Origin: a virus
Lineage: Duplodnaviria > Heunggongvirae > Uroviricota > Caudoviricetes
Length of the DNA stretch: 8,692 bases
Direction: 5' to 3' (one strand)
IMG/VR virus record: IMGVR_UViG_2778261591_000007
Shown: piece after piece, positions 1 through 8,239 of the stretch
Numbering within the stretch: position 1 is the stretch's first letter
Layout: each line of letters starts with the position of its first letter
Notes under the pieces: generated by a model
What the model saw: only the letters and a program-made list of their open reading frames with translations
Databases searched by the model: none
Told to the model about the DNA's origin: nothing
Position numbers and translations under genes: made by a program

Positions 1-401
1 TCTTGTATTTTTGTTTCGATAGCGCCAGATCTTTTAATGTCTTTTTCAGCACGATAATATGCCTGATCTGGGTCATATTTTAACACATTCGGAAAATAGA
101 ACTGCTGTGCACCATATGCATCATAAACAGCCATAGAATGGCCTTGCACAGTTACAAATTTGGCAATCTGCCCGTTGTACACAGGATATCCGGCAGCATT
201 GATAACAATTGGCTGAGAAACAGGGACGTGAGATCCGTCTTTATTCTCTACATAAACCTGAATCTGGTTTTCAGGATTTACCGGATCAGTGTCAATTTTT
301 CCGATATAAATTTTGCCATTAGCTACGGCTTTAAAAGAACGCGCCATAGTGAAGAGTTGCGAAGGCATGCTTACCACAACATTGGCTGTAATGTCTGTCA
401 T
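1..401 (-). CDS. Tailspike protein, N-terminal head-binding domain (partial; 3' end lies beyond the window start)
   Basis: Minus-strand ATG at 401..399 with a TGGAG Shine-Dalgarno about 10 nt upstream. Translation begins [59 protein letters not shown]..., which I recognise as the conserved N-terminal domain of P22/Sf6/HK620-type tailspikes (P22 gp9 starts [13 protein letters not shown]...). Not in the ORF track because it runs off the window edge. Confidence 0.85.
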
Positions 402-458
402 TTAATTTGCTCCAGATACAAGGAATCGCCGCAGCATGGCTACGGTGAATTTTGGGCA

Positions 459-484
459 TAAAAAAACCCAGCCGAAGCTGGGTC
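459..484 (-). terminator. Rho-independent terminator downstream of ant
   Basis: On the minus strand: GC-rich stem ACCCAGC / GCTGGGT (plus 466..472 and 477..483) with a TTCG tetraloop, followed by a run of 6-7 T (plus A-run 460..466). Sits between the ant stop (502) and the tailspike start (401). Confidence 0.6.
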
Positions 485-501
485 GTTGCGTTGGTTATCT
501 G

Positions 502-1425
502 TCAGTAGTTATGTACTGAAGGAGGTAATTCTTTATTCTTAAGTCTCATCCATGCGGAAAGATTCGCTGGTCCGTCTGGCTCATTAATATCAACATCTCG
601 TGTGTGGTTTATTAAAACGTCTCTCGCCATTCCTATAACATACGAGAACTCATGACCGTAGTCGTAACATCTGCCGGAATAGTTCGATTGAATTTGTTTT
701 AGCGCCGGATACAATTCGCGGAATAATGCCTGTGAGCGGTTGGCATAATCCCATAACCATACGAGGCTGTTTGCTTCTTTTGCAGAAAGCTCGTTGGTTT
801 TCTTCTCTTGTTTGCAGATGAACTCACCTTCAAGCGGAACGCGAGCTGCAAGTGACAGTGCTTCGGTAAACTGCTCCTCACTAATTTCTTTGTACGAACA
901 TCCAAAATGGGATTTCAGTGACGACCACATGGTGATCATCGCCTTAGCCTGTTTTTCTTTTGGCAGAGACTGACCGCGACTCATGACGAGTTGTTTAATG
1001 GCTTCCTGCTGTTCAGTGGTGATTTTACCCTGCAACGCCTTTTTAGCTTTGCGTGGGTTAACTACATGGCCTTTAGTCCAGTACTCATAGAGCACATCGT
1101 CACACTCTTCCTGATACTGGATTACCTTGTCGCGGATTTCAGGGCGGACTTTGTTTGGACTGATGCTGTTCAACCAAGCTGCCAATTTTCGTAAAGCCAT
1201 ACAAATCATGGCTTGCACCCCACCGGCAGAAGGTATGGTGATTTCCACCATACCCTTCGAGAAGCGTTGAGAAATCTTCTTATGTTGAGATTTCCAGTCT
1301 AGCCCCATTCCCTCAACGATAGGTTTCATTGGGGTGTACGGTTCGCCGTTGTGATTGACAACATAAAGCTCTGCGCCGTGGAATGGTACATTGATAGTAG
1401 ATACTGCTGTTGCTATACTTTTCAC
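502..1425 (-). CDS. ant: Phage antirepressor (Ant-like)
   Basis: 307-aa ORF starting at GTG 1425 with an AGGAA Shine-Dalgarno upstream. N-terminus (…INVPFHGAELYVVNHNGEPYTPMKPIVEGMGLDW…) resembles the antirepressor N-terminal domain as I recall it. Size is close to P22 Ant (about 300 aa), and it sits immediately downstream of arc and divergent from mnt, exactly as in P22 immI. Confidence 0.7.
   Translation of the reverse strand: MKSIATAVSTINVPFHGAELYVVNHNGEPYTPMKPIVEGMGLDWKSQHKKISQRFSKGMVEITIPSAGGVQAMICMALRKLAAWLNSISPNKVRPEIRDKVIQYQEECDDVLYEYWTKGHVVNPRKAKKALQGKITTEQQEAIKQLVMSRGQSLPKEKQAKAMITMWSSLKSHFGCSYKEISEEQFTEALSLAARVPLEGEFICKQEKKTNELSAKEANSLVWLWDYANRSQALFRELYPALKQIQSNYSGRCYDYGHEFSYVIGMARDVLINHTRDVDINEPDGPANLSAWMRLKNKELPPSVHNY
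1391..1419 (+). promoter_or_regulatory. Candidate sigma70 promoter (Psar-like) pointing antisense to ant
   Basis: -35 TTGATA (1391..1396), 17-bp spacer, -10 TATACT (1414..1419) on the plus strand inside the 5' end of ant. Predicted start about 1424..1426, at the ant start codon. Confidence 0.4.
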
Positions 1426-1499
1426 GTCGTTAATTCCTATGCGTGGTTTTACGATACCGAAGCCCTGACTGTTCCCGCAGTTGGGGCTTCACTGTTTTG
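1424..1499 (+). ncRNA. sar: Candidate sar-like antisense RNA covering the ant ribosome-binding site and start codon
   Basis: Near-consensus promoter (1391..1419) followed about 35 nt later by a long hairpin (1459..1490; 13-bp stem with two G-U pairs, 6-nt loop) and a U-rich tail (TTTT at 1495..1498, then GATTTCTTTG). Predicted transcript about 70 nt, complementary to the ant SD and start. Matches the known P22 sar arrangement (68-69 nt antisense RNA in the arc-ant region). Confidence 0.4.
1459..1499 (+). terminator. Intrinsic terminator hairpin for the candidate sar RNA
   Basis: GAAGCCCTGACTG / CAGTTGGGGCTTC stem around loop TTCCCG, followed by ACTGTTTTGATTTC on the plus strand. The U-tract is separated from the stem by 4 nt, so efficiency is uncertain. 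Confidence 0.4.
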
Positions 1500-1658
1500 A
1501 TTTCTTTGCCGCATCAAGCATCACTTCTGAAAACGTGCGCTTGCCACTGAATACTCTTTCTCTTCTCAATTTTTCGTTCGTGCCAAATGATTCGCCATGA
1601 ACAAAATTTGGTCTTAAAATGGTAATCGCAATCTCTTTGACTACTGCATCCAAGCGAA

Positions 1659-1811
1659 TCACACCGTTACCCCCTCTCTCTTCAGGCTGTCTATCAGGCG
1701 CTTGATAACCTCTGAGTTAAACGACCTGCACTCTTCCTTTGCCCTGCTACCGATAGCATCCTTTAACGACTGCGGCATCCTTACCAAAATCTTACTTATT
1801 TCTTTCTCCAT
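1659..1811 (-). CDS. arc: Arc-like ribbon-helix-helix repressor
   Basis: 50-aa product MEKEISKILVRMPQSLKDAIGSRAKEECRSFNSEVIKRLIDSLKREGVTV. The core (MPQ…RSFNSEV…KREG) matches the P22 Arc RHH signature (MPQFNLRWPREVLDLVRKVAEENGRSVNSEIYQRVMESFKKEG). Start taken as ATG 1811..1809 with GGAGGG 5 nt upstream; the ORF-track start at 1847 is a TTG without an SD. Confidence 0.8.
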   Translation of the reverse strand: MEKEISKILVRMPQSLKDAIGSRAKEECRSFNSEVIKRLIDSLKREGVTV

Positions 1812-1847
1812 GTTACCCTCCACACAAACAACTCTTTTCGAATACAA

Positions 1848-1876
1848 AAGATAGCAAAGTGAGTATATCTAGTCAA
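1848..1876 (-). promoter_or_regulatory. Candidate Pant promoter with an inverted repeat in the spacer (possible Arc operator position)
   Basis: Minus strand: -35 TTGACT (plus 1871..1876), 17-bp spacer, -10 TATCTT (plus 1848..1853), about 35 nt upstream of the arc start. The spacer and hexamers carry an inverted repeat AGATA(1849..1853)-N12-TATCT(1866..1870). In P22 the Arc operator lies between -35 and -10 of Pant. Confidence 0.45.
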
Positions 1877-1893
1877 AATTTTTTTGCATACAC

Positions 1894-1905
1894 TTTGATA
1901 TCAAA
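1894..1905. promoter_or_regulatory. Perfect 12-bp palindrome TTTGATATCAAA in the mnt/arc divergent intergenic region (candidate operator)
   Basis: Read directly from the sequence; exactly self-complementary. Lies 18 bp upstream of the predicted Pant -35 and about 20 bp upstream of the mnt start (1926), where Pmnt and its operator would be expected. Confidence 0.45.
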
Positions 1906-1925
1906 TTGAATACCAAAGGTGTGAT

Positions 1926-2174
1926 ATGGCAAAGGGTGTGTCAATTTCTCCAACTACGGTAAGAATCCCTGAATCTTTACGCGAGGCTCTTTCTGTCAGA
2001 GCATCAAAAAATGGTCGCTCTGTTAACTCCGAGATCGTCATGATTTTGCAAGCCGCGATTGATGAAGATAGGTCGCCAAAGTCAGTTGAGTCATTTGCTC
2101 AGCAAGAAGCTGACAAATTCAAAGAGGCGCTGCTTGAGACGCTAAAGACCATGTATGGTAAGGATGAAAAATGA
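1926..2174 (+). CDS. mnt: Mnt-like ribbon-helix-helix repressor
   Basis: 82-aa ORF, the same size class as P22 Mnt. N-terminal RHH region (TVRIPESLREALSVRASKNGRSVNSEIVMILQAAI) parallels the P22 Mnt motif (…FRMPMEVREKLKFRAEANGRSMNSELLQIVQDAL). AAGGTG Shine-Dalgarno at 1916..1921. Divergent from arc-ant as in P22 immI. Confidence 0.8.
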   Translation: MAKGVSISPTTVRIPESLREALSVRASKNGRSVNSEIVMILQAAIDEDRSPKSVESFAQQEADKFKEALLETLKTMYGKDEK

Positions 2175-2489
2175 AACGTATAGCTATCCTATTGCTCCTG
2201 TGTCTCTCGAGCATAGCTAACGCAGAAAAAAAAATCAGACGATAGCAGTTTTGATGAAATACAAGGCCTCATGATAGCTTCTAAAATGGCTGGTATGTGT
2301 GGTGCAATCAAACAAATGGCAATATTCCAAGAATCTACAAACATGCCGGGTGGGAATGAATTCTTACAGAGATTCCTTACTACAGAGCAAGCAAGGCTTG
2401 GGATGACTCCGCAGCAATTTCTTGAAGCATGTCAGAAATCAATCTCTATTTATACCACCTATTACAATATGAGCTCTGAGGAAAAATAG
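2171..2489 (+). pseudogene. Secreted hypothetical protein gene split by an A9 homopolymer (possible frameshifted or slippage-dependent gene)
   Basis: ATG 2171 overlaps the mnt stop (ATGA) and encodes MKRIAILLLLCLSSIANA-EKKIRR-stop (2243..2245), a typical Sec signal peptide with an AXA cleavage site and almost no mature part. The +1 frame is open from 2217 through 2489 and contains the 72-aa track ORF (2271..2489). The two frames meet at the A9 tract (2226..2234). Removing one A gives a single 105-aa preprotein. Confidence 0.45.
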
Positions 2490-2498
2490 ACAAGGATT

Positions 2499-2684
2499 TC
2501 AACAGCTTCCGCGTACCTGAGTAATTCTGTCGCGGATTTGCTTCTTACGGTGATTTAAGCTGGAGAGCTTGGCTTCTGCTTCTGATATTTGCGCATCAAG
2601 ATCTTTAAGCTCAAGATCTGAAAGTCGCTGGTCAAGCAGGGTTTGATTCAACTCAATGTTGTTCAGACGTTCTTCTATGGTCAT
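2499..2684 (-). CDS. Small hypothetical coiled-coil protein (61 aa)
   Basis: ATG 2684..2682 preceded by a perfect AAGGAG at 7-nt spacing. Product is a heptad-like, charged, Leu-rich helix (…LLDQRLSDLELKDLDAQISEAEAKLSSL…). No family recognised. Expression is doubtful because a terminator hairpin lies immediately upstream. Confidence 0.3.
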   Translation of the reverse strand: MTIEERLNNIELNQTLLDQRLSDLELKDLDAQISEAEAKLSSLNHRKKQIRDRITQVRGSC

Positions 2685-2696
2685 GATTACTCCTTA

Positions 2697-2726
2697 TAAA
2701 AAACCCACCTGACGGTGGGTTTTATT
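2697..2726. terminator. Bidirectional rho-independent terminator
   Basis: Stem CCCACC (2704..2709) / GGTGGG (2714..2719) with loop TGAC, flanked by an A-run (2698..2703) and T-run (2720..2723). Reads as a terminator on both strands: it ends the minus-strand operon 2746..3592 and plus-strand transcripts coming from mnt. Confidence 0.55.
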
Positions 2727-2745
2727 AGTGCTTGTATAGGTTGAA

Positions 2746-3144
2746 CTATCTATCAAGCCATATAACAAAAAATGTCGATCCAAGACGATAACCAACCATG
2801 GCTTTCAAATCATCAAATCTAAAAGCCAAGAAATGATCTACGTCTTCCGTTATATGACTGGGGATACCTGCTTTAATTGCACCCCTTGCAATCTTCTCAA
2901 ATCCAAGCTTATGCCTACCTTGCTGCTTAATATCTGCCCATGTTAGTTGACTTAATCTGTATAATTTATCAGCTAAGCCAGCTTTCTCATCTTTTTGGCA
3001 TTTCGTTATGCAGTGAGAGCTTTGGATGTAACAGAATGAAAATTTCGGTTTCTTTTGATCTGAATTCCCCCCTGACTGCGGCCCTAACTTTAACTTACCT
3101 GTAGATTCAGCAGGGGGGATAATCCTTTTAGATTTTCTTGCCAT
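2746..3144 (-). CDS. Hypothetical basic protein (132 aa), downstream partner of the Panacea-like gene; candidate toxin/effector
   Basis: ATG 3144..3142 lies 4 nt after the upstream gene's stop (TAACGAGATG), suggesting translational coupling. Product has a Lys/Arg-rich, probably disordered N-terminus (MARKSKRIIPPAESTGKLKLGPQSGGNSDQKKPKFSF), a Cys/His cluster (CYIQSSHCITKC) and a C-terminus ending …HFLAFRFDDLKAMVGYRLGSTFFVIWLDR. No family recognised. The longer track ORF (to 3219) starts at TTG and overlaps the upstream gene by 71 nt, so the ATG start is preferred. Confidence 0.5.
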   Translation of the reverse strand: MARKSKRIIPPAESTGKLKLGPQSGGNSDQKKPKFSFCYIQSSHCITKCQKDEKAGLADKLYRLSQLTWADIKQQGRHKLGFEKIARGAIKAGIPSHITEDVDHFLAFRFDDLKAMVGYRLGSTFFVIWLDR

Positions 3145-3148
3145 CTCG

Positions 3149-3592
3149 TTAGTTAATCCGAGTTGCAAAGTACTCTGCCATCTCCTTAGAACTAATTTCA
3201 GAACCACCAACACCCTCAATATAGTTTGATCTCCATGGTGACTCTTCGTGTGTCATGTTCCTCAGTTTCCAGGCAGAAAATTGCCCAAAAACATCCCAGA
3301 CTTCTTCTAATAGCTCTAACTGTTCTTCGCTGAATTTTTCAGCATCAAAAGACTCTGGAGAAGGGATAGCACCATTACCATATTGTTTATAACGGTGATA
3401 AAGCTCAGGGACAACAGGGCCATGCATCCAAGCTTCCATCTTATTCTGAAAAAGAGGCTCGCCAAGCAACGCCAATGAAAAACCCTGAGCATAGTAAACA
3501 AGCTTTTGTAATTTTAAATTAGAGATTGCGTCACCGCTATCCTCGTCACACCGCGACAGGAAGTAGTCGGCGACATCAAAACAAGTAAGCAT
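3149..3592 (-). CDS. Panacea-domain (DUF4065, SocA/GepA-like 'phage-associated protein') antitoxin-type protein
   Basis: Start taken as ATG 3592..3590 with GGAGG 7 nt upstream (the track start is a GTG two codons earlier). The segment DVADYFL…ISNLKLQKLVYYAQGFSLALLGEPLFQNKMEAWMHGPVVPELYHRY matches the DUF4065/Panacea signature as I recall it (T/N-KLQKLLYYAQ…G.PLF…EAW.YGPV.P.VY). Confidence 0.7.
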   Translation of the reverse strand: MLTCFDVADYFLSRCDEDSGDAISNLKLQKLVYYAQGFSLALLGEPLFQNKMEAWMHGPVVPELYHRYKQYGNGAIPSPESFDAEKFSEEQLELLEEVWDVFGQFSAWKLRNMTHEESPWRSNYIEGVGGSEISSKEMAEYFATRIN

Positions 3593-3966
3593 GAACACAC
3601 CTCCATCTTGATAGCCACAGCTAAGTATCCAACTATGTCAAATGTCATTTAATACTATAACAAAGCTATCAGCAATCCTTCGGAGGCTAACTTACAACCA
3701 CTTTAGCGACATGTTTAAACCATTACGTTTCACATTTACTGCATTTTCGCCGAAGTTACCTATAAGGTAATGTCACATTTCCTGCAAGTTTCATGCAATG
3801 TTGAAAAGTGAGCTATTCACTTTTCTATGACACCAAACACCAAAAATAGCACTTTTTGCTAAATCATTCGTCCAAGTTGTGGATGGTTTGTCGTTGACAC
3901 ATTTTCACACACCGCTCCACCAATAAAGTATCATCTGGTATCCTGCTCAAAACTAAGGAGGTTAGT
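3593..3966. promoter_or_regulatory. AT-rich divergent intergenic region with repeated motifs (promoters for the Panacea operon and the secreted-protein gene)
   Basis: 374 bp with no ORF. Direct repeats TCACATTTaCTGCA (3730..3743) and TCACATTTcCTGCA (3772..3785) flank an inverted repeat TTACC-tataa-GGTAA (3756..3770). Related TGTCA/CACATTT elements at about 3635..3650 and 3894..3910. TTGACA at 3894..3899 but no clean -10 at 17-bp spacing. Confidence 0.3.
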
Positions 3967-4356
3967 GTGAAGCGATTTCTTGCTGCTATGTTCTTATTCA
4001 TATCTTTTGGGGCTACAGCAGAGTGCTGGGTCGTTGGAGATATGCGCGGAATAAGCTATTCAGAACGAAATAATTTCCATCCGGAAGAAGATGGTTTTAG
4101 TGGAACATTCATCATTAAGACAAGCGGTGAAGATGCTAGCATCACATATTCTGGGACAGATGCGGGCGGCATGGCTTACAAAGTATTGTCTAAAAACTCC
4201 ATCATAGGAATCGGCGCGAATGGCGAAACTCAACGCGTTATCGACTCATGGGTAATACATCCTACTGGAACAGTTTTAATGTCAAAAACCATTTCCGGTT
4301 ATGGAAATATGGATTCAACCAAAGCTTTTGTTGGAAAAGTAAAAAGAAAATGTTAG
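3967..4356 (+). CDS. Secreted (periplasmic) hypothetical protein, 129 aa
   Basis: GTG start with AAGGAGG 5 nt upstream. N-terminal signal peptide MKRFLAAMFLFISFGATA with AXA cleavage (ATA|E). Mature part is beta-rich and Gly/Ser/Thr-rich, with Cys at both ends (AEC… and …KRKC). Convergent with gp16. No family recognised. Confidence 0.55.
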   Translation: MKRFLAAMFLFISFGATAECWVVGDMRGISYSERNNFHPEEDGFSGTFIIKTSGEDASITYSGTDAGGMAYKVLSKNSIIGIGANGETQRVIDSWVIHPTGTVLMSKTISGYGNMDSTKAFVGKVKRKC

Positions 4357-4380
4357 CGATTGAATCCAATTTCCCATACG

Positions 4381-6291
4381 TTACTGCTGTGTTGCCTCAG
4401 TGGCAAGCAGCGGCCTGATGGCATTCGCAGCGTTATTCAGCGCTCTTTCATAGGCTGGCGTTCCAGCTTTAGTGTTTGCCAGACGTAAGAGAGCATTCCT
4501 TGCTGCTTTGGACTCATACAAGCGCATGATTGCACCGAAACCAGCCTCAAGTCCCAGTGATACACCAAGGGTTGCAGTTGCGCCAATCGTTCTAATCCTG
4601 TTAGCTTGCGATTGTCCTGTCTGTGTTACTACATTTGCGGCGTCCGACCTTGCTGTTTGCTGTAGAACTTCATGAAGAGCATCAAGCTCTTTCATGTGTC
4701 TCCCACTGAATATCGTGTTATAGATCTGACCGTCAGATTGCGACTTCAACTTATTTAACTCGGTAAGAAATTTTGTTGGCGAGTCTCCTGCTTTTTCTGC
4801 AATCTTGCTGATATAAGCAGCACGCATAGCGTTCTTTCCATCTTCACTAAGAGCTGGCCATATCCTCTTAATATCTGATGGTTTTCTGCTGAATACAACG
4901 CTGTTTATTAGCTCTGGAGTAAACTCTTTTTTAGCTTTGTTGAGATTATTCGCAATCCTTTTATTAAGAACCTTATTGAAGACGTTGGAGTAGTCAGAGT
5001 TTGCTTTGACGTATCTGGCGGCCTCTCCAGCCCCCAAATACCGCGCTGCGTTATTCCTCAAATCTGCCCCCATTGCCCTCTCCACGGCATCAGTTGCGGC
5101 TTTCGCGCTATTAGGAAAAACCATGGCATCTCCCTGAATACTTTCCCTCAAGGCTGACCGCAACTCTCTCAATAGACCAAAATCTATATCTGGTTTAGCA
5201 AGTTCTTCTCGCAAATCGGATAACCCGCGAATCAAATCCTTATTTGCCACTTTCCCAAGCCTATTAGCTCTGGTAAGTACGTTGTCGATAACCTTAATAG
5301 ATTTTGATGTGTCAACTGGTGTGTCTCCCATTTTGGCTGTAATGTCTTCAATAACGCTTCCGGCCGAATCCTTCCTTGACTTCAGAGAGCCATACAGATC
5401 GTCAACAACAACTGATGGACTATATTCACCATATTTCTCAAGCTGTTTTTTAACTAGCTGACTTCTTTTTGCATACTGCTCAGCTCGCTTTGAGCCTGTT
5501 CCCAGCAAAGCCCCCTCAGCATCCTGAGTAAGACCACGAGTGAAAGCATTTTTCGGCGGGATTACATCAGATGTCATTGGTGTCACGCCCATCGATTCTG
5601 ATGTGGCAATTTTCTTCGCCACTTCTGGTGCAATATCACCTTTAAAGGCAGTTATTCCACGCTCAAGCCCTTTTGCAACAGTATTAACAGCACCACCTGT
5701 TAGCATGCCAACACCTATATCTGTTGCCAGTTTTCCCGCATCATTTTTCTCACTGTTTGCGGCGAGCGATCCGACTGCGTTTTCTGCCAGAAGACGGGCT
5801 GCGCCTTGAGTAATTCGACCAGCAAGTGTTGGCGCCTGAGTTGAAGCGCCGCCAACGCCAACAGTAGCCAGGTAAGGCAATGCCTCCGCAAACACCCTAC
5901 CTTCTGTCGTTTGTGGAGTCAGAGCACCTTGCTGAAGTCCAAACGCCTGCTCTAATCCCTGAGTTGTTACTCGTGGCGCTGGTTGATATGTTCCATCGCC
6001 AATACCGAGTTTACCGCCAGCCCATGCCGCCGCGCTTGTTACAGCATCGGCAACTGATGCTGGTATATTTGCCACATTTACACCAGCCTGCACCAGTCCG
6101 CGACCAGTTTCTTTTACTGCTTCGCCGAGGTCAGACATAAATCCATCTTGCTGTTCTACAGGCTGCTTTTGGTTTTGAGTTGGTTGATTACTGGAGGACA
6201 GAATCTGAGCGATGCGACGTGCTCCCTCAGTATCACCAGCAGCATCAGCATTCCTTAACGCCGTCATCAATTGTTCACGACTATAGGCCAT
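4381..6291 (-). CDS. Ejection (injection) protein, P22 gp16-like
   Basis: 636-aa ORF (P22 gp16 is about 609 aa). Last gene of the ejection-protein block, directly upstream of the sieA/immI position as in P22. GGAGGG Shine-Dalgarno; its start overlaps the gp20-like stop (TAATG). Ala/Gly/Gln-rich composition typical of these proteins. Assignment rests on synteny and size, not a search. Confidence 0.7.
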   Translation of the reverse strand: MAYSREQLMTALRNADAAGDTEGARRIAQILSSSNQPTQNQKQPVEQQDGFMSDLGEAVKETGRGLVQAGVNVANIPASVADAVTSAAAWAGGKLGIGDGTYQPAPRVTTQGLEQAFGLQQGALTPQTTEGRVFAEALPYLATVGVGGASTQAPTLAGRITQGAARLLAENAVGSLAANSEKNDAGKLATDIGVGMLTGGAVNTVAKGLERGITAFKGDIAPEVAKKIATSESMGVTPMTSDVIPPKNAFTRGLTQDAEGALLGTGSKRAEQYAKRSQLVKKQLEKYGEYSPSVVVDDLYGSLKSRKDSAGSVIEDITAKMGDTPVDTSKSIKVIDNVLTRANRLGKVANKDLIRGLSDLREELAKPDIDFGLLRELRSALRESIQGDAMVFPNSAKAATDAVERAMGADLRNNAARYLGAGEAARYVKANSDYSNVFNKVLNKRIANNLNKAKKEFTPELINSVVFSRKPSDIKRIWPALSEDGKNAMRAAYISKIAEKAGDSPTKFLTELNKLKSQSDGQIYNTIFSGRHMKELDALHEVLQQTARSDAANVVTQTGQSQANRIRTIGATATLGVSLGLEAGFGAIMRLYESKAARNALLRLANTKAGTPAYERALNNAANAIRPLLATEATQQ

Positions 6292-7577
6292 TACTGCCCT
6301 CCGAGATATTTGCTAATTAATTCGTCATCGGACAATTGCTGTTGAGGTTGGCTATCGCCATAACTTGAGGAAAGAAAACGTTTTGCCGCAGAGTTCAATG
6401 ACTCACCCTTCTTAACATCCATCCCCATGATGTTTCGGTTGCGATCAGATTGTCCTGGGCTGCCATTTGCACTCATCCACTCTGACTTAAACTCGTTGAA
6501 CTTCGCGTTATTACTTTCCATTTTTGCCATACCCCTTAACCATCGAGCCATGACCATTGGATTATCCGTTTCGCTTGGAATGCCTTTCCTTGCAAACTCA
6601 ATATCCTTATCTGATGCAGGGCCGGGAGGGAGAAGTTTGGTTGCCTGCGCATTGGCTAGTTGGTTGAATCTAATCCGCATATCTCGGAGGTAGTTATTTT
6701 GCCCCGTAAGCTTAGAGAACATATTTTCAGCGTTACCGAACAAACCAGGAGTTGGCTTCTCCTTCTCCAGCGTGTCAGCGAGCGTTGTCATTGAATCGGC
6801 AGCATTACGACTAGCTGCCGCATCACCTGCTGATTTTTCTATAGCCTTTTCCATGTTCACTGATAATTTTGGCGCTGCATTAATAAGTTCCTCGGCCTTT
6901 TTTTGTGCCTGTTGTACTTCAAAACCGAATTTCTGCTTATCAAGTGCCAGTCTTTCTGCTGCAAGTCCGTGTCCGGTCATTGCTGACTGATAGGAAAGGT
7001 TTTGCCCTCTCGCCTGAAGTGCTTCTCCAGCCTGATTGCTGCGGATTTGCTCATTAAGCTGATCGCGTTTATGCTGCACATCAAACTGTTTATCCATAGG
7101 AAGAGTGGCAAGGCGGCTAGCATTTAACAGGCTATTAAACCTGCCCGGATCCTGTTGATAAAGCTGCCATGCGTCATCCTTACTCACACCAAGACTTGAT
7201 AATGCTGCGCTGTTGCTATTCAGAGCATTTGCAATTTCATTTGGATTTCCTGTAGATGCAGCAATTGATATTTTATTTAAAGCTGAATTAACAAATGCTG
7301 AATGCTCAGCACTCTGAATACCTAACTCCTGCTGTATAGCCTGAGTAAACTCAGGGAATTTTCGACGCAGAGAAGCAATTTGTTCAGGAGGCGTTTCATT
7401 AATAGCTTTATAGAATTCCTGCTGTCTGGCATCCTGCCGAATAGCCCGCTGGTTATCTATTCCCTGCGCTATACCTTGCTGTGTTGTGGCAAAGGTTTGA
7501 GCTTCTTTCAATCCTTCCAGTCTGAAGTCAGGAACTAATGACATCAGATTTAATGGGCTGCCAATACTATAAGCCAT
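6291..7577 (-). CDS. Ejection (injection) protein, P22 gp20-like
   Basis: 428-aa ORF (P22 gp20 is about 471 aa). AGGAGG Shine-Dalgarno; its start overlaps the upstream stop (TGATG). Sits between the gp7-like and gp16-like genes. Confidence 0.7.
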   Translation of the reverse strand: MAYSIGSPLNLMSLVPDFRLEGLKEAQTFATTQQGIAQGIDNQRAIRQDARQQEFYKAINETPPEQIASLRRKFPEFTQAIQQELGIQSAEHSAFVNSALNKISIAASTGNPNEIANALNSNSAALSSLGVSKDDAWQLYQQDPGRFNSLLNASRLATLPMDKQFDVQHKRDQLNEQIRSNQAGEALQARGQNLSYQSAMTGHGLAAERLALDKQKFGFEVQQAQKKAEELINAAPKLSVNMEKAIEKSAGDAAASRNAADSMTTLADTLEKEKPTPGLFGNAENMFSKLTGQNNYLRDMRIRFNQLANAQATKLLPPGPASDKDIEFARKGIPSETDNPMVMARWLRGMAKMESNNAKFNEFKSEWMSANGSPGQSDRNRNIMGMDVKKGESLNSAAKRFLSSSYGDSQPQQQLSDDELISKYLGGQ

Positions 7578-8239
7578 CAGAATAATCCTCCTAAAAATCC
7601 ACCAAACATGTTAGTGAAAGAGTTAACATCCTGAGATGCACCATTACCTAATGATGAGTTAGCACTGGCTGCCGTCTGCCATGGTAAGGCTTTTTGCGCC
7701 CCCCTGATTTGCCCTGATTCTCCTATGAGAGACGTTAAAACATTTGAGTTGTTTGCCGATGCTGCACTACCCATACCAGCAGCAGTTAACCCAACATTCG
7801 TTAACCCCATTAACTGGTTATACATATCCTGCTGCTCTGCTGTCTTCATGGAAAGATATTGCTGGCCTAATTGAGGGGCAATAGAAGCCAGCATATTTCC
7901 CGTAGCCGTTGACCCAAGCCCGCCTGTAGCTTCAGCAGATGCAAGCCCACTATAACGAGCCTGATCATTTAGGAGCTTGAATTCTTGCGAATTAAAGTAG
8001 TCGCCTAATAATTTATTTCGATCAATAGGAATGCCAGCAAGCTTTTGCAAACGAGGTAAAGCTGATTCGCCAACTTCACGATAAGGTTTTCCAAACGCTA
8101 TCTGCTGCTGATACATTTGCTCCTGAAGGTTTTGCTGCCTGTCATTAGCTTTTTTGTACTCTTTGCTTGCAGAATTAGCGCCTATTCCACCAAGTATCCC
8201 GCTAGCAGCATTTGTTACACCTTTAATTGCTCCGCCCAT
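7577..8239 (-). CDS. Ejection (injection) protein, P22 gp7-like
   Basis: Start chosen as ATG 8239..8237 with GGGGGAA upstream, giving about 220 aa (P22 gp7 is about 229 aa). The track's longer start at 8290 lacks a good SD and would overlap the upstream gene by 68 nt. Gly/Ala/Ser/Gln-rich. Confidence 0.6.
   Translation of the reverse strand: MGGAIKGVTNAASGILGGIGANSASKEYKKANDRQQNLQEQMYQQQIAFGKPYREVGESALPRLQKLAGIPIDRNKLLGDYFNSQEFKLLNDQARYSGLASAEATGGLGSTATGNMLASIAPQLGQQYLSMKTAEQQDMYNQLMGLTNVGLTAAGMGSAASANNSNVLTSLIGESGQIRGAQKALPWQTAASANSSLGNGASQDVNSFTNMFGGFLGGLF

Follow-up and report, generated by a model that had tools for sequence, protein, structure and literature searches.

We analysed an 8692-bp stretch of DNA (IMG/VR record IMGVR_UViG_2778261591_000007; hereafter the window), which covers, in reverse reading, the immI region and the ejection genes of a P22-like (Lederbergvirus) E. 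coli prophage, and we were concerned mainly with the interval at 2171-4380, between mnt and the homologue of P22 gene 16. We consider it probable, at about 70%, that this interval is the lysogeny-side cargo (moron) locus of the prophage, made up of independently exchangeable cassettes lying between short conserved joints. An initial annotation made from the sequence alone had given these coordinates and listed two signal-peptide proteins, a Panacea pair and a coiled-coil open reading frame (ORF) in mixed orientation; the inventory is correct, and five small genes (SP1, cc61, panT, panA and SP2) are present. Cargo sites of this kind are already known, and the sequence of the window has in effect been public since phage Emek. 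What is new here is the anatomy of the socket adjoining gene 16, together with a list of the envelope proteins that occupy it, and a link between Panacea partner cluster T1 and the RNase domain of the Menshen system. The features of the interval and its two anchors are as follows.

mnt, 1926-2174, plus strand: Arc/Mnt-type ribbon-helix-helix repressor, the left conserved anchor (stop codon 2172-2174)
SP1, 2171-2489, plus strand: encodes a secreted protein of 105 aa; frameshifted pseudogene in the window
cc61, 2499-2684, minus strand: 61-aa predicted coiled-coil protein, matching phrog_7586 end to end (E = 2e-43)
Hairpin, 2700-2723, both strands: bidirectional intrinsic terminator, AAAACCCACC-TGAC-GGTGGGTTTT
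panT, 2725-3144, minus strand: Panacea-associated partner of Kurata cluster T1, predicted to be an RNase of RelE/YafQ-like (BECR) type; the ORF of the window covers 2746-3144
panA, 3149-3592, minus strand: standalone Panacea (DUF4065) protein, 147 aa
Non-coding region, 3599-3914, no strand: travels with panAT; presumed promoter/operator of panAT and promoter of the slot gene
Conserved joint, 3915-3969, plus strand: leader, ribosome-binding site (RBS) and GTG start of the gene adjoining gene 16 (...GGTATCCTGCTCAAAACTAAGGAGGTTAGTGTG)
SP2, 3967-4356, plus strand: secreted protein of 129 aa, occupying the sieA slot and convergent with gene 16
Gene 16 homologue, 4381-6291, minus strand: DNA ejection protein, the right conserved anchor (stop codon 4381-4383)

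Conserved flanks and coding content

The mnt product contains a Pfam Arc domain (E = 3e-10) and is named an Arc-family DNA-binding protein in RefSeq. The gene 16 homologue shares 52% identity with P22 gp16 at its C-terminal end (tblastn), and its close homologues carry the annotation 'P22-gp16 family phage DNA ejection protein'. The corresponding interval of P22 reads gene 16, sieA, orf59a, mnt, with sieA convergent with gene 16 and under its own promoter, and orf59a downstream of mnt. A tblastn search with P22 SieA as the query detected no sieA homologue in the window, while the same query found relatives with 91-93% and with 28% identity in other loci. The nearest relative of the window, a prophage of E. 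coli OkiPb01711, differs from it by three mismatches in 8.7 kb, at 242 (tailspike N-terminus), 2748 (panT) and 5419 (synonymous, Ser291 of gp16).

All five genes gave end-to-end matches to PHROG families (E = 2e-43 to 4e-67), and an excess of third-position changes among natural variants supports coding for cc61 (5, 6 and 22 variable sites at codon positions 1, 2 and 3, over 25 distinct alleles), SP2 (4, 8 and 20) and panA (37, 27 and 81). Searches of Pfam, NCBIfam and PADLOC with SP1, cc61 and SP2 returned nothing usable, cc61 yielding sub-threshold coiled-coil noise, and an Rfam scan returned sar RNA alone, outside the interval, with a sub-threshold, terminator-like sroH match.

Exchange of modules between conserved joints

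We retrieved 80 IMG/VR loci through Mnt homology, together with phage and E. coli records, and used the 69 loci in which both mnt and the gp16/gp20 pair could be placed. The 69 mnt-gene 16 intervals showed 50 different gene orders and lengths of 740-3143 bp, and the gene combination of the window, matched at 80% or more, was present in 4 of 5426 complete E. coli genomes. The content between the conserved mnt and gene 16 flanks is thus variable, and the interval is an accessory locus, which bears out the proposal of the initial annotation that it is a variable cargo locus.

At least four modules of the locus assort independently. The partners of panAT vary among SP2, sieA type A (L042 and L043), a 28%-identical sieA-like gene (L025) and a 75-aa membrane protein; cc61 stands alone in one locus (L060), SP2 occurs without panAT in four (L020, L036, L056 and L062), and SP1 without panAT in two (L032 and L071). 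What recurs irrespective of the neighbours is a set of joints, namely the mnt stop, the terminator hairpin and a 35-55 nt RBS/GTG leader. The gene directly after mnt is always tightly coupled to the mnt stop: the two overlap as ATGA in the window and by 1 nt in PA45B (with a ClpP-like gene), and are 2 nt apart in Emek. This position is taken by SP1, a ClpP-like protease, a protein of 69 aa or an ORF of 77 aa. The slot abutting gene 16 holds SieA type A, the 28%-identical SieA-like protein, SP2 or various small membrane proteins. The central, minus-strand slot is filled by either of two diverged panAT alleles (PanA 70% and PanT 57% identical), a YafO-family toxin and its partner, a P63C-domain protein or a lipoprotein, and may favour two-gene toxin-like modules. 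The YafO-family toxin (PF13957, E = 3e-22) lies with a 198-aa partner at the minus-strand position of panAT in L029-L031 and L037.

Base composition

The GC content of the interval, 40.5%, is below that of the right flank, on the gene-16 side (45.9%; chi-square p = 3.5e-5), and of the left flank, on the immI side (43.5%; p = 0.045), and ranks in the lowest 3% of segments of the same size. The same holds for related intervals: all 62 distinct ones have a lower GC content than the neighbouring gp16-gp20 DNA, and 53 of the 62 a lower one than immI. GC content at third codon positions (GC3), by comparison, is indistinguishable between the genes of the interval (0.33-0.44) and gp16, gp20 and gp7 (0.35-0.39), so that the gap must come from codon positions 1 and 2, that is, from amino-acid composition, and from AT-rich non-coding DNA. 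A foreign codon-usage signature in the interval was ruled out on the same grounds. The AT-richness that the initial annotation had noticed is thus real but modest and, with GC3 unchanged, is a weak signal.

The sieA slot and SP2

The leader of the conserved joint matches over 29-61 nt, at 85-97% identity (blastn), in some 45 loci whose downstream genes are unrelated; P22, in which it abuts the annotated sieA promoter, is among them. Its core, AAAACTAAGGAGGT, was found in 49 of the 69 intervals. The GTG of SP2 (3967) lies 6 nt after the conserved AGGAGG, at the position that corresponds to the start of P22 sieA, and because of this spacing and this equivalence GTG 3967 is more likely to be the start of SP2 than ATG 3988. 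The latter is the start given in RefSeq, with which the charged N-region of the signal peptide is lost.

Because ORFs extending through the shared leader had merged SieA, SP1 and SP2, slot genes were recovered by anchoring on the conserved RBS, which was possible in 53 loci, and were clustered at stricter coverage with RBS-anchored starts. This gave 11 families, and in 10 of them a signal peptide or membrane segment is predicted:

SieA, with four hydrophobic segments: 8 loci
62-aa protein with two transmembrane (TM) segments: 8 loci
SP2: 7 loci
109-aa TM and coiled-coil protein: 7 loci
75-aa two-TM protein: 6 loci
106-aa TM protein: 6 loci
116-aa three-TM protein: 4 loci
47%-identical relative of SP1: 4 loci
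Three further families: 1 locus each

The families of SP1 and SP2, the two signal-peptide proteins of the window, are thus both found in the sieA slot of some locus.

The signal peptide of SP2 is MKRFLAAMFLFISFGATA, followed after the cleavage site by EC. Its relatives (87 representatives) are all about 125-135 aa long; the Cys after the cleavage site is invariant, and one Trp and a terminal Cys are conserved in at least 90% of them. In the AlphaFold2 model (pLDDT 94), the mature part is an 8-stranded up-and-down beta-barrel. The closest relatives (48% identity or more) all occupy the sieA slot in P22-like prophages, beside the ejection genes, and in another such prophage (L094, 3359-4164) tandem SP2 paralogues, 36% identical to each other, adjoin gp16. 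Gene calls for that locus place no arc, mnt or ant between an upstream 867-aa ORF and the ejection genes. Among phage genomes, tblastn with SP2 found Emek and ST-35 only, and the similarity to 'Sf6 gene 38' given in the Emek record was not reproduced at E <= 1e-5. A profile search of genome contigs gave no match with SP2 alone and, with a closer alignment (A4), a single locus, in Silvania.

That locus (Silvania confinis, L093) carries a 47% SP2 homologue after a Rap1a gene for immunity to the type VI secretion system (T6SS), and a more distant SP2 relative lies within an array of small co-directional genes. The Silvania genes are part of an integrase-bounded island by proBA-like genes (39-7653), in which the Rap1a gene and the SP2 homologue come after genes for an EH-signature protein and an SNF2 helicase of 1080 aa, a pair that may be Zorya-like (ZorC/ZorD). 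Similar 1080-aa and 387-aa ORFs occur downstream of mnt in four of the IMG/VR loci (L048, L050, L051 and L053). SP2 itself is most likely a periplasmic binding or blocking protein, to judge from its signal peptide, model and position, and its target would be the ejection machinery or another periplasm-acting toxin.

The mnt-coupled slot and SP1

The ATG of SP1 (2171) overlaps the mnt stop, and the predicted signal peptide is MKRIAILLLLCLSSIANA, cleaved before E. The frame is broken at a run of nine A residues (A9) at 2226-2234, and three-frame translation finds the rest of the protein as a 72-aa ORF in the +1 frame (2271-2489). With the frame repaired (105/106 aa), SP1 matches phrog_19844 end to end (E = 4e-67). 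The intact copies in L032 and L071 have AAACAAAA where the window has A9, so that the run amounts to a C-to-A change and one additional A, which are shared with OkiPb01711 only; in all 35 other E. coli genomes with SP1 the matches extend over 349-350 nt rather than 351, consistent with a sequence 1 nt shorter. PGAP/RefSeq places no coding sequence between mnt and cc61 in the near-identical OkiPb01711. Programmed frameshifting was considered and ruled out, because the intact homologues have no slippery run. The A9 run may be a genuine mutation, a homopolymer sequencing error or a lesion rescued by slippage; such runs can be partly rescued by transcriptional slippage.

The Panacea pair

The panA product matches the Panacea model PF13274 (E = 8e-25; 88 bits, cut-off 25.7), and so has the antitoxin domain of PanAT systems, and it is named a Panacea domain-containing protein in RefSeq; its score against the NCBIfam SocA equivalog, 70, is below the cut-off of 190. 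The gene has GGAGG 7 nt ahead of its ATG at 3592, with an alternative GTG start at 3598, and its stop lies 4 nt ahead of the panT ATG (3144). This ATG, which gives a protein of 139 aa, is the probable native start of panT. The annotation of the gene in Emek as a 161-aa protein (YP_006560566.1; window equivalent 2725-3210) overlaps panA by 62 nt.

PanT homologues are found in Enterobacterales, Vibrio, Aeromonas, cyanobacteria, acidobacteria and Pseudomonas phages, and no Pfam model covers the family. In every context examined a Panacea gene lies directly upstream; the Panacea-first order is kept as a conserved operon in V. cholerae (L007-9), where the pair is located in the superintegron cassette array, in an acidobacterium (L010) and in Pseudomonas phage CF60a (L100). 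The AlphaFold2 model of PanT (pLDDT 88.5) has RelE-type topology, with the beta-strand, two helices and three- to four-stranded antiparallel sheet of the BECR fold, and its N-terminal ~35 residues are predicted to be disordered. Neither the single sequence nor a 49-sequence profile of PanT matched any curated family in Pfam or NCBIfam, or any entry in the PDB. The sole match at the sequence level was to NsnC's C-terminal domain in PADLOC (E = 4e-6, NsnC positions 178-279 of 284), which is described as a BECR-superfamily RNase domain, closest to YafQ, with an H-R-H triad (PMC12065111). Residues conserved in the PanT family are H86, E91, R117, R128, Y145 and H147 (P0001 numbering), and by analogy with YoeB, YafQ and NsnC they would be catalytic. 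Panacea has been proposed to act as a sensor (PMC10440598), and we prefer to regard PanT as a latent, trigger-dependent RNase held by PanA, since this would fit both the proposed sensor role and the relative in a defence system.

PanT is 139 aa long in all relatives and 132 aa in the window, where a TAG at 2746-2748 (A at 2748, C in the relative; GAG to TAG) removes the residues EFNLYKH. With them go F142, L144, Y145 and H147, each kept in at least 90% of the family, and hence the near-invariant C-terminal motif F-x-L-Y-x-H, so that the complete set of putative catalytic residues is not present in this copy. The window PanT, lacking the conserved C-terminal Y-x-H, is probably inactive. This nonsense allele was absent from 14 other loci and from the 48 complete E. 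coli genomes carrying the gene, and the change must be very recent, because only three bases in 8.7 kb separate the window from its nearest relative.

Full-length matches to the region upstream of panA (at least 362 nt, 94-99% identity) are confined to loci that carry panA, and about 200 nt of it (3731-3935) are almost invariant between panAT alleles whose proteins are 57-70% identical. Such conservation suggests either a functional element (promoter/operator or RNA) or a recent recombination tract. No convincing sigma-70 consensus was seen in the upstream region.

cc61 and the terminator hairpin

In the ORF clustering, cc61 is the commonest module (35 of 69 loci, 92-97% identity); its RBS is AAGGAG. 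The hairpin at 2700-2723 has folding energies of -15.8 kcal/mol on the minus strand and -15.4 kcal/mol on the plus strand (z about -4), a stability reached by none of 200 shuffles, and the Emek record labels its equivalent as a rho-independent terminator. A CCCACC-N4-GGTGGG hairpin is found in 40 of the 69 related intervals, whatever the flanking genes. A consensus scan missed the terminator because the stem runs through the T-run.

Proposed function and alternative explanations

If the interval is an exchangeable cargo locus, the joints and the conserved ends of mnt and gene 16 would serve as homology arms through which co-infecting or resident P22-like phages swap cassettes. The conserved leader, RBS and GTG would drive any gene that abuts gene 16, here SP2, and the cargo would be expressed from the prophage, as are mnt and sieA of P22. 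SP2, and SP1 where intact, would act in the periplasm, binding or blocking incoming P22-like ejection machinery or other periplasm-acting toxins; production of SP1 in the window would need slippage at A9. PanA would hold a latent RNase that targets the ribosome or mRNA and is freed only upon a trigger such as phage infection, an abortive-infection logic that would parallel that of the homologous effector domain of Menshen NsnC. It is from these features that we infer roles in defence or exclusion for the cargo genes.

Several observations weigh against this picture. The survey loci were chosen through Mnt homology and hence are no unbiased census. Two of the five genes, SP1 and panT, are disrupted, so that the copy in the window may do little. 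A PADLOC scan of the proteins of the interval found no system beyond the weak NsnC domain match, and the fold of SP2 matches generic barrels only, which do not indicate a specific ligand. cc61 lies directly downstream of the terminator hairpin, and a consensus scan identified no promoter for panAT, cc61 or SP2, manual inspection giving weak candidates only. Kurata et al. (2022) listed the Emek pair as a predicted PanAT of cluster T1 ('mRNase') and cloned the Emek protein along with another T1 protein, encoded in an E. coli prophage; the two were scored 'not toxic' in E. coli. The Emek clone was the 161-aa ORF, which is identical to the intact 139-aa PanT over those residues, and its 22-residue N-terminal extension lies in the region predicted to be disordered, so the result deserves weight. 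The pair thus resembles a toxin-antitoxin (TA) pair with an RNase-like effector but was not toxic in the published test, and it is a predicted, not a validated, PanAT.

That one AT-rich island, acquired horizontally, took the place of sieA as a unit seems to us highly improbable. Within the window, GC content is lowest in the interval (40.5%, compared with 45.9% on the gene-16 side), P22 has sieA at a site where the window has none, and Emek shares 2499-4700 as one 99%-identical block. However, each component occurs without the others in the loci named above, Emek differs to the left of 2499, GC3 equals that of the ejection genes, and GC content is low in 62 of 62 related loci irrespective of what they carry; this explanation is already largely refuted. 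The statement in the initial annotation that the island replaces sieA is imprecise: the modules are independent, SP2 alone fills the slot, and panAT co-occurs with sieA elsewhere. It is also unlikely that the cargo is a decaying moron graveyard with no current role for host or phage: although SP1 is frameshifted, the panT nonsense codon deletes four near-invariant residues, RefSeq has no annotation between mnt and cc61, and even intact PanT was scored as not toxic, the remaining genes (panA, cc61 and SP2) are intact and under purifying selection across alleles, the nonsense codon arose very recently, the ejection and immI genes on either side are unbroken, and the A9 lesion is of a kind that slippage can partly relieve.

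The remaining alternatives concern what the cargo does. SP2 and the SP1 family might confer lysogenic-conversion immunity against periplasm-acting toxins (T6SS amidases, lysozyme or colicins) rather than phage exclusion, which we regard as possible but doubtful: the contexts that point to it are single ones, a match to colicin K is below threshold and the fold match is generic, and the closest SP2 relatives all lie in the sieA slot, by the ejection genes that SieA targets. For panAT, the antitoxin-first bicistronic layout with its 4-nt gap, the occurrence of the pair among the superintegron cassettes of V. cholerae, where stabilizing TA pairs are typically found, and the YafO-family toxin pair in the same central slot of other prophages are what would be expected of a classical addiction module, stabilizing the prophage by post-segregational killing instead of acting against phages. 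Addiction requires toxicity, though, and PanT was non-toxic on overexpression; its homology, moreover, is to the effector domain of a defence system, and we consider an addiction module improbable.

A broader proposal, which we put forward as no more than tentative, is that the slot adjoining gene 16 is a general socket for exclusion cassettes, that SP2 founds a new periplasmic beta-barrel exclusion/immunity family, and that the T1 partners are latent RNases shared with Menshen. If so, a fixed leader, RBS and GTG would serve to express whichever of at least 11 unrelated envelope proteins is present; SP2, whose family has about 87 representative clusters and is also present in T6SS-immunity-like contexts, would stand in for SieA and bind either the trans-periplasmic ejection conduit (gp7/gp20/gp16) or a different periplasm-acting effector; and the T1 RNases would be trigger-dependent rather than classical toxins, explaining the absence of toxicity. 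Two-thirds of the sequenced P22-like phages have no sieA, and the present survey reveals what occupies its place. The occupants of the socket make up a short list of candidate exclusion or immunity proteins, testable with the existing P22, HK620, CUS-3 and Sf6 assays. T1 is the largest predicted Panacea partner cluster, and its link to Menshen suggests why its members proved non-toxic in the standard test, in that the nuclease may be conditional. The window itself is an ordinary prophage cargo locus in which two of the five genes are inactivated.

Other features of the window

The 5' part of the window is the immI region, and the ejection genes continue beyond gene 16:

Tailspike N-terminus, leftmost in the window
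ant, 502-1425, minus strand: Pfam Ant domain
sar RNA, 1427-1493, plus strand: antisense RNA (Rfam, 76.6 bits)
57-aa ORF, 1489-1662, between arc and ant: phrog_17642, annotated in RefSeq
arc, between the 57-aa ORF and mnt, divergent from mnt
gp20, gp7 and gp14 homologues, beyond the gene 16 homologue, minus strand

A 21-nt palindrome at 1882-1917 separates the divergent mnt and arc genes. At the right-hand end of the interval, a 19-nt inverted repeat (4300-4378) spans the 3' end of SP2 and the spacer between SP2 and gene 16. On the minus strand it lies directly downstream of the gene-16 stop, with a folding energy of -23.2 kcal/mol (z -4.4), and it could be a terminator or an RNA-stability element of the late transcript.

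Comparison with known systems

Compared with P22, the window has a PanA/RNase pair, cc61 and a secreted protein coupled to mnt, all of which P22 lacks, and P22 is also without a gene at the arc/ant position of the 57-aa ORF. Salmonella phage vB_SemP_Emek (NC_018275) is much closer, being 99.1% identical over 2499-4700; its orf61, orf161, orf149 and orf129 are the four genes of the window in the same order and with the same terminator. The differences are that Emek has orf77 and orf69 after mnt in place of SP1, and a full-length PanT where that of the window ends at the premature TAG.

By acting on the ejection proteins, SieA stops DNA from crossing the inner membrane, and its gene is present in 22 of 66 P22-like phages, in three types that are roughly 25% identical (Leavitt et al. 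2024; PMC10883804). Like P22 sieA, SP2 lies between mnt and gene 16 and abuts gene 16 in the same orientation, with the same leader, AGGAGG and GTG. The proteins differ, however: SieA is an inner-membrane protein with four TM segments, whereas a hydropathy scan of SP2 shows one cleavable signal peptide and no polytopic arrangement, and its model is a soluble-type beta-barrel. SP2 clusters apart from SieA and showed no homology to type A, B or C.

The likeness of panAT to the PanAT systems (Kurata et al. 2022; Ernits et al. 2023) lies in a standalone Panacea gene upstream of a small partner, the pair being kept across phyla. From the ribosome-dependent mRNA endonucleases RelE, YoeB, YafQ and HigB, and from the PB-BECR1 domain of NsnC, the window PanT differs in having no Pfam or PDB sequence match, in its extra, disordered N-terminus of ~35 residues and in the loss of the C-terminal motif. 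With Menshen (NsnABC) the similarity is confined to the effector domain: NsnC consists of an inactive PIN domain and an effector, and PanT aligns to the effector part alone, while PADLOC found no match to NsnA (ParB/DUF262) or NsnB (ABC ATPase) among the proteins of the interval, so that the pair shares with Menshen an RNase-type domain rather than membership of the system.

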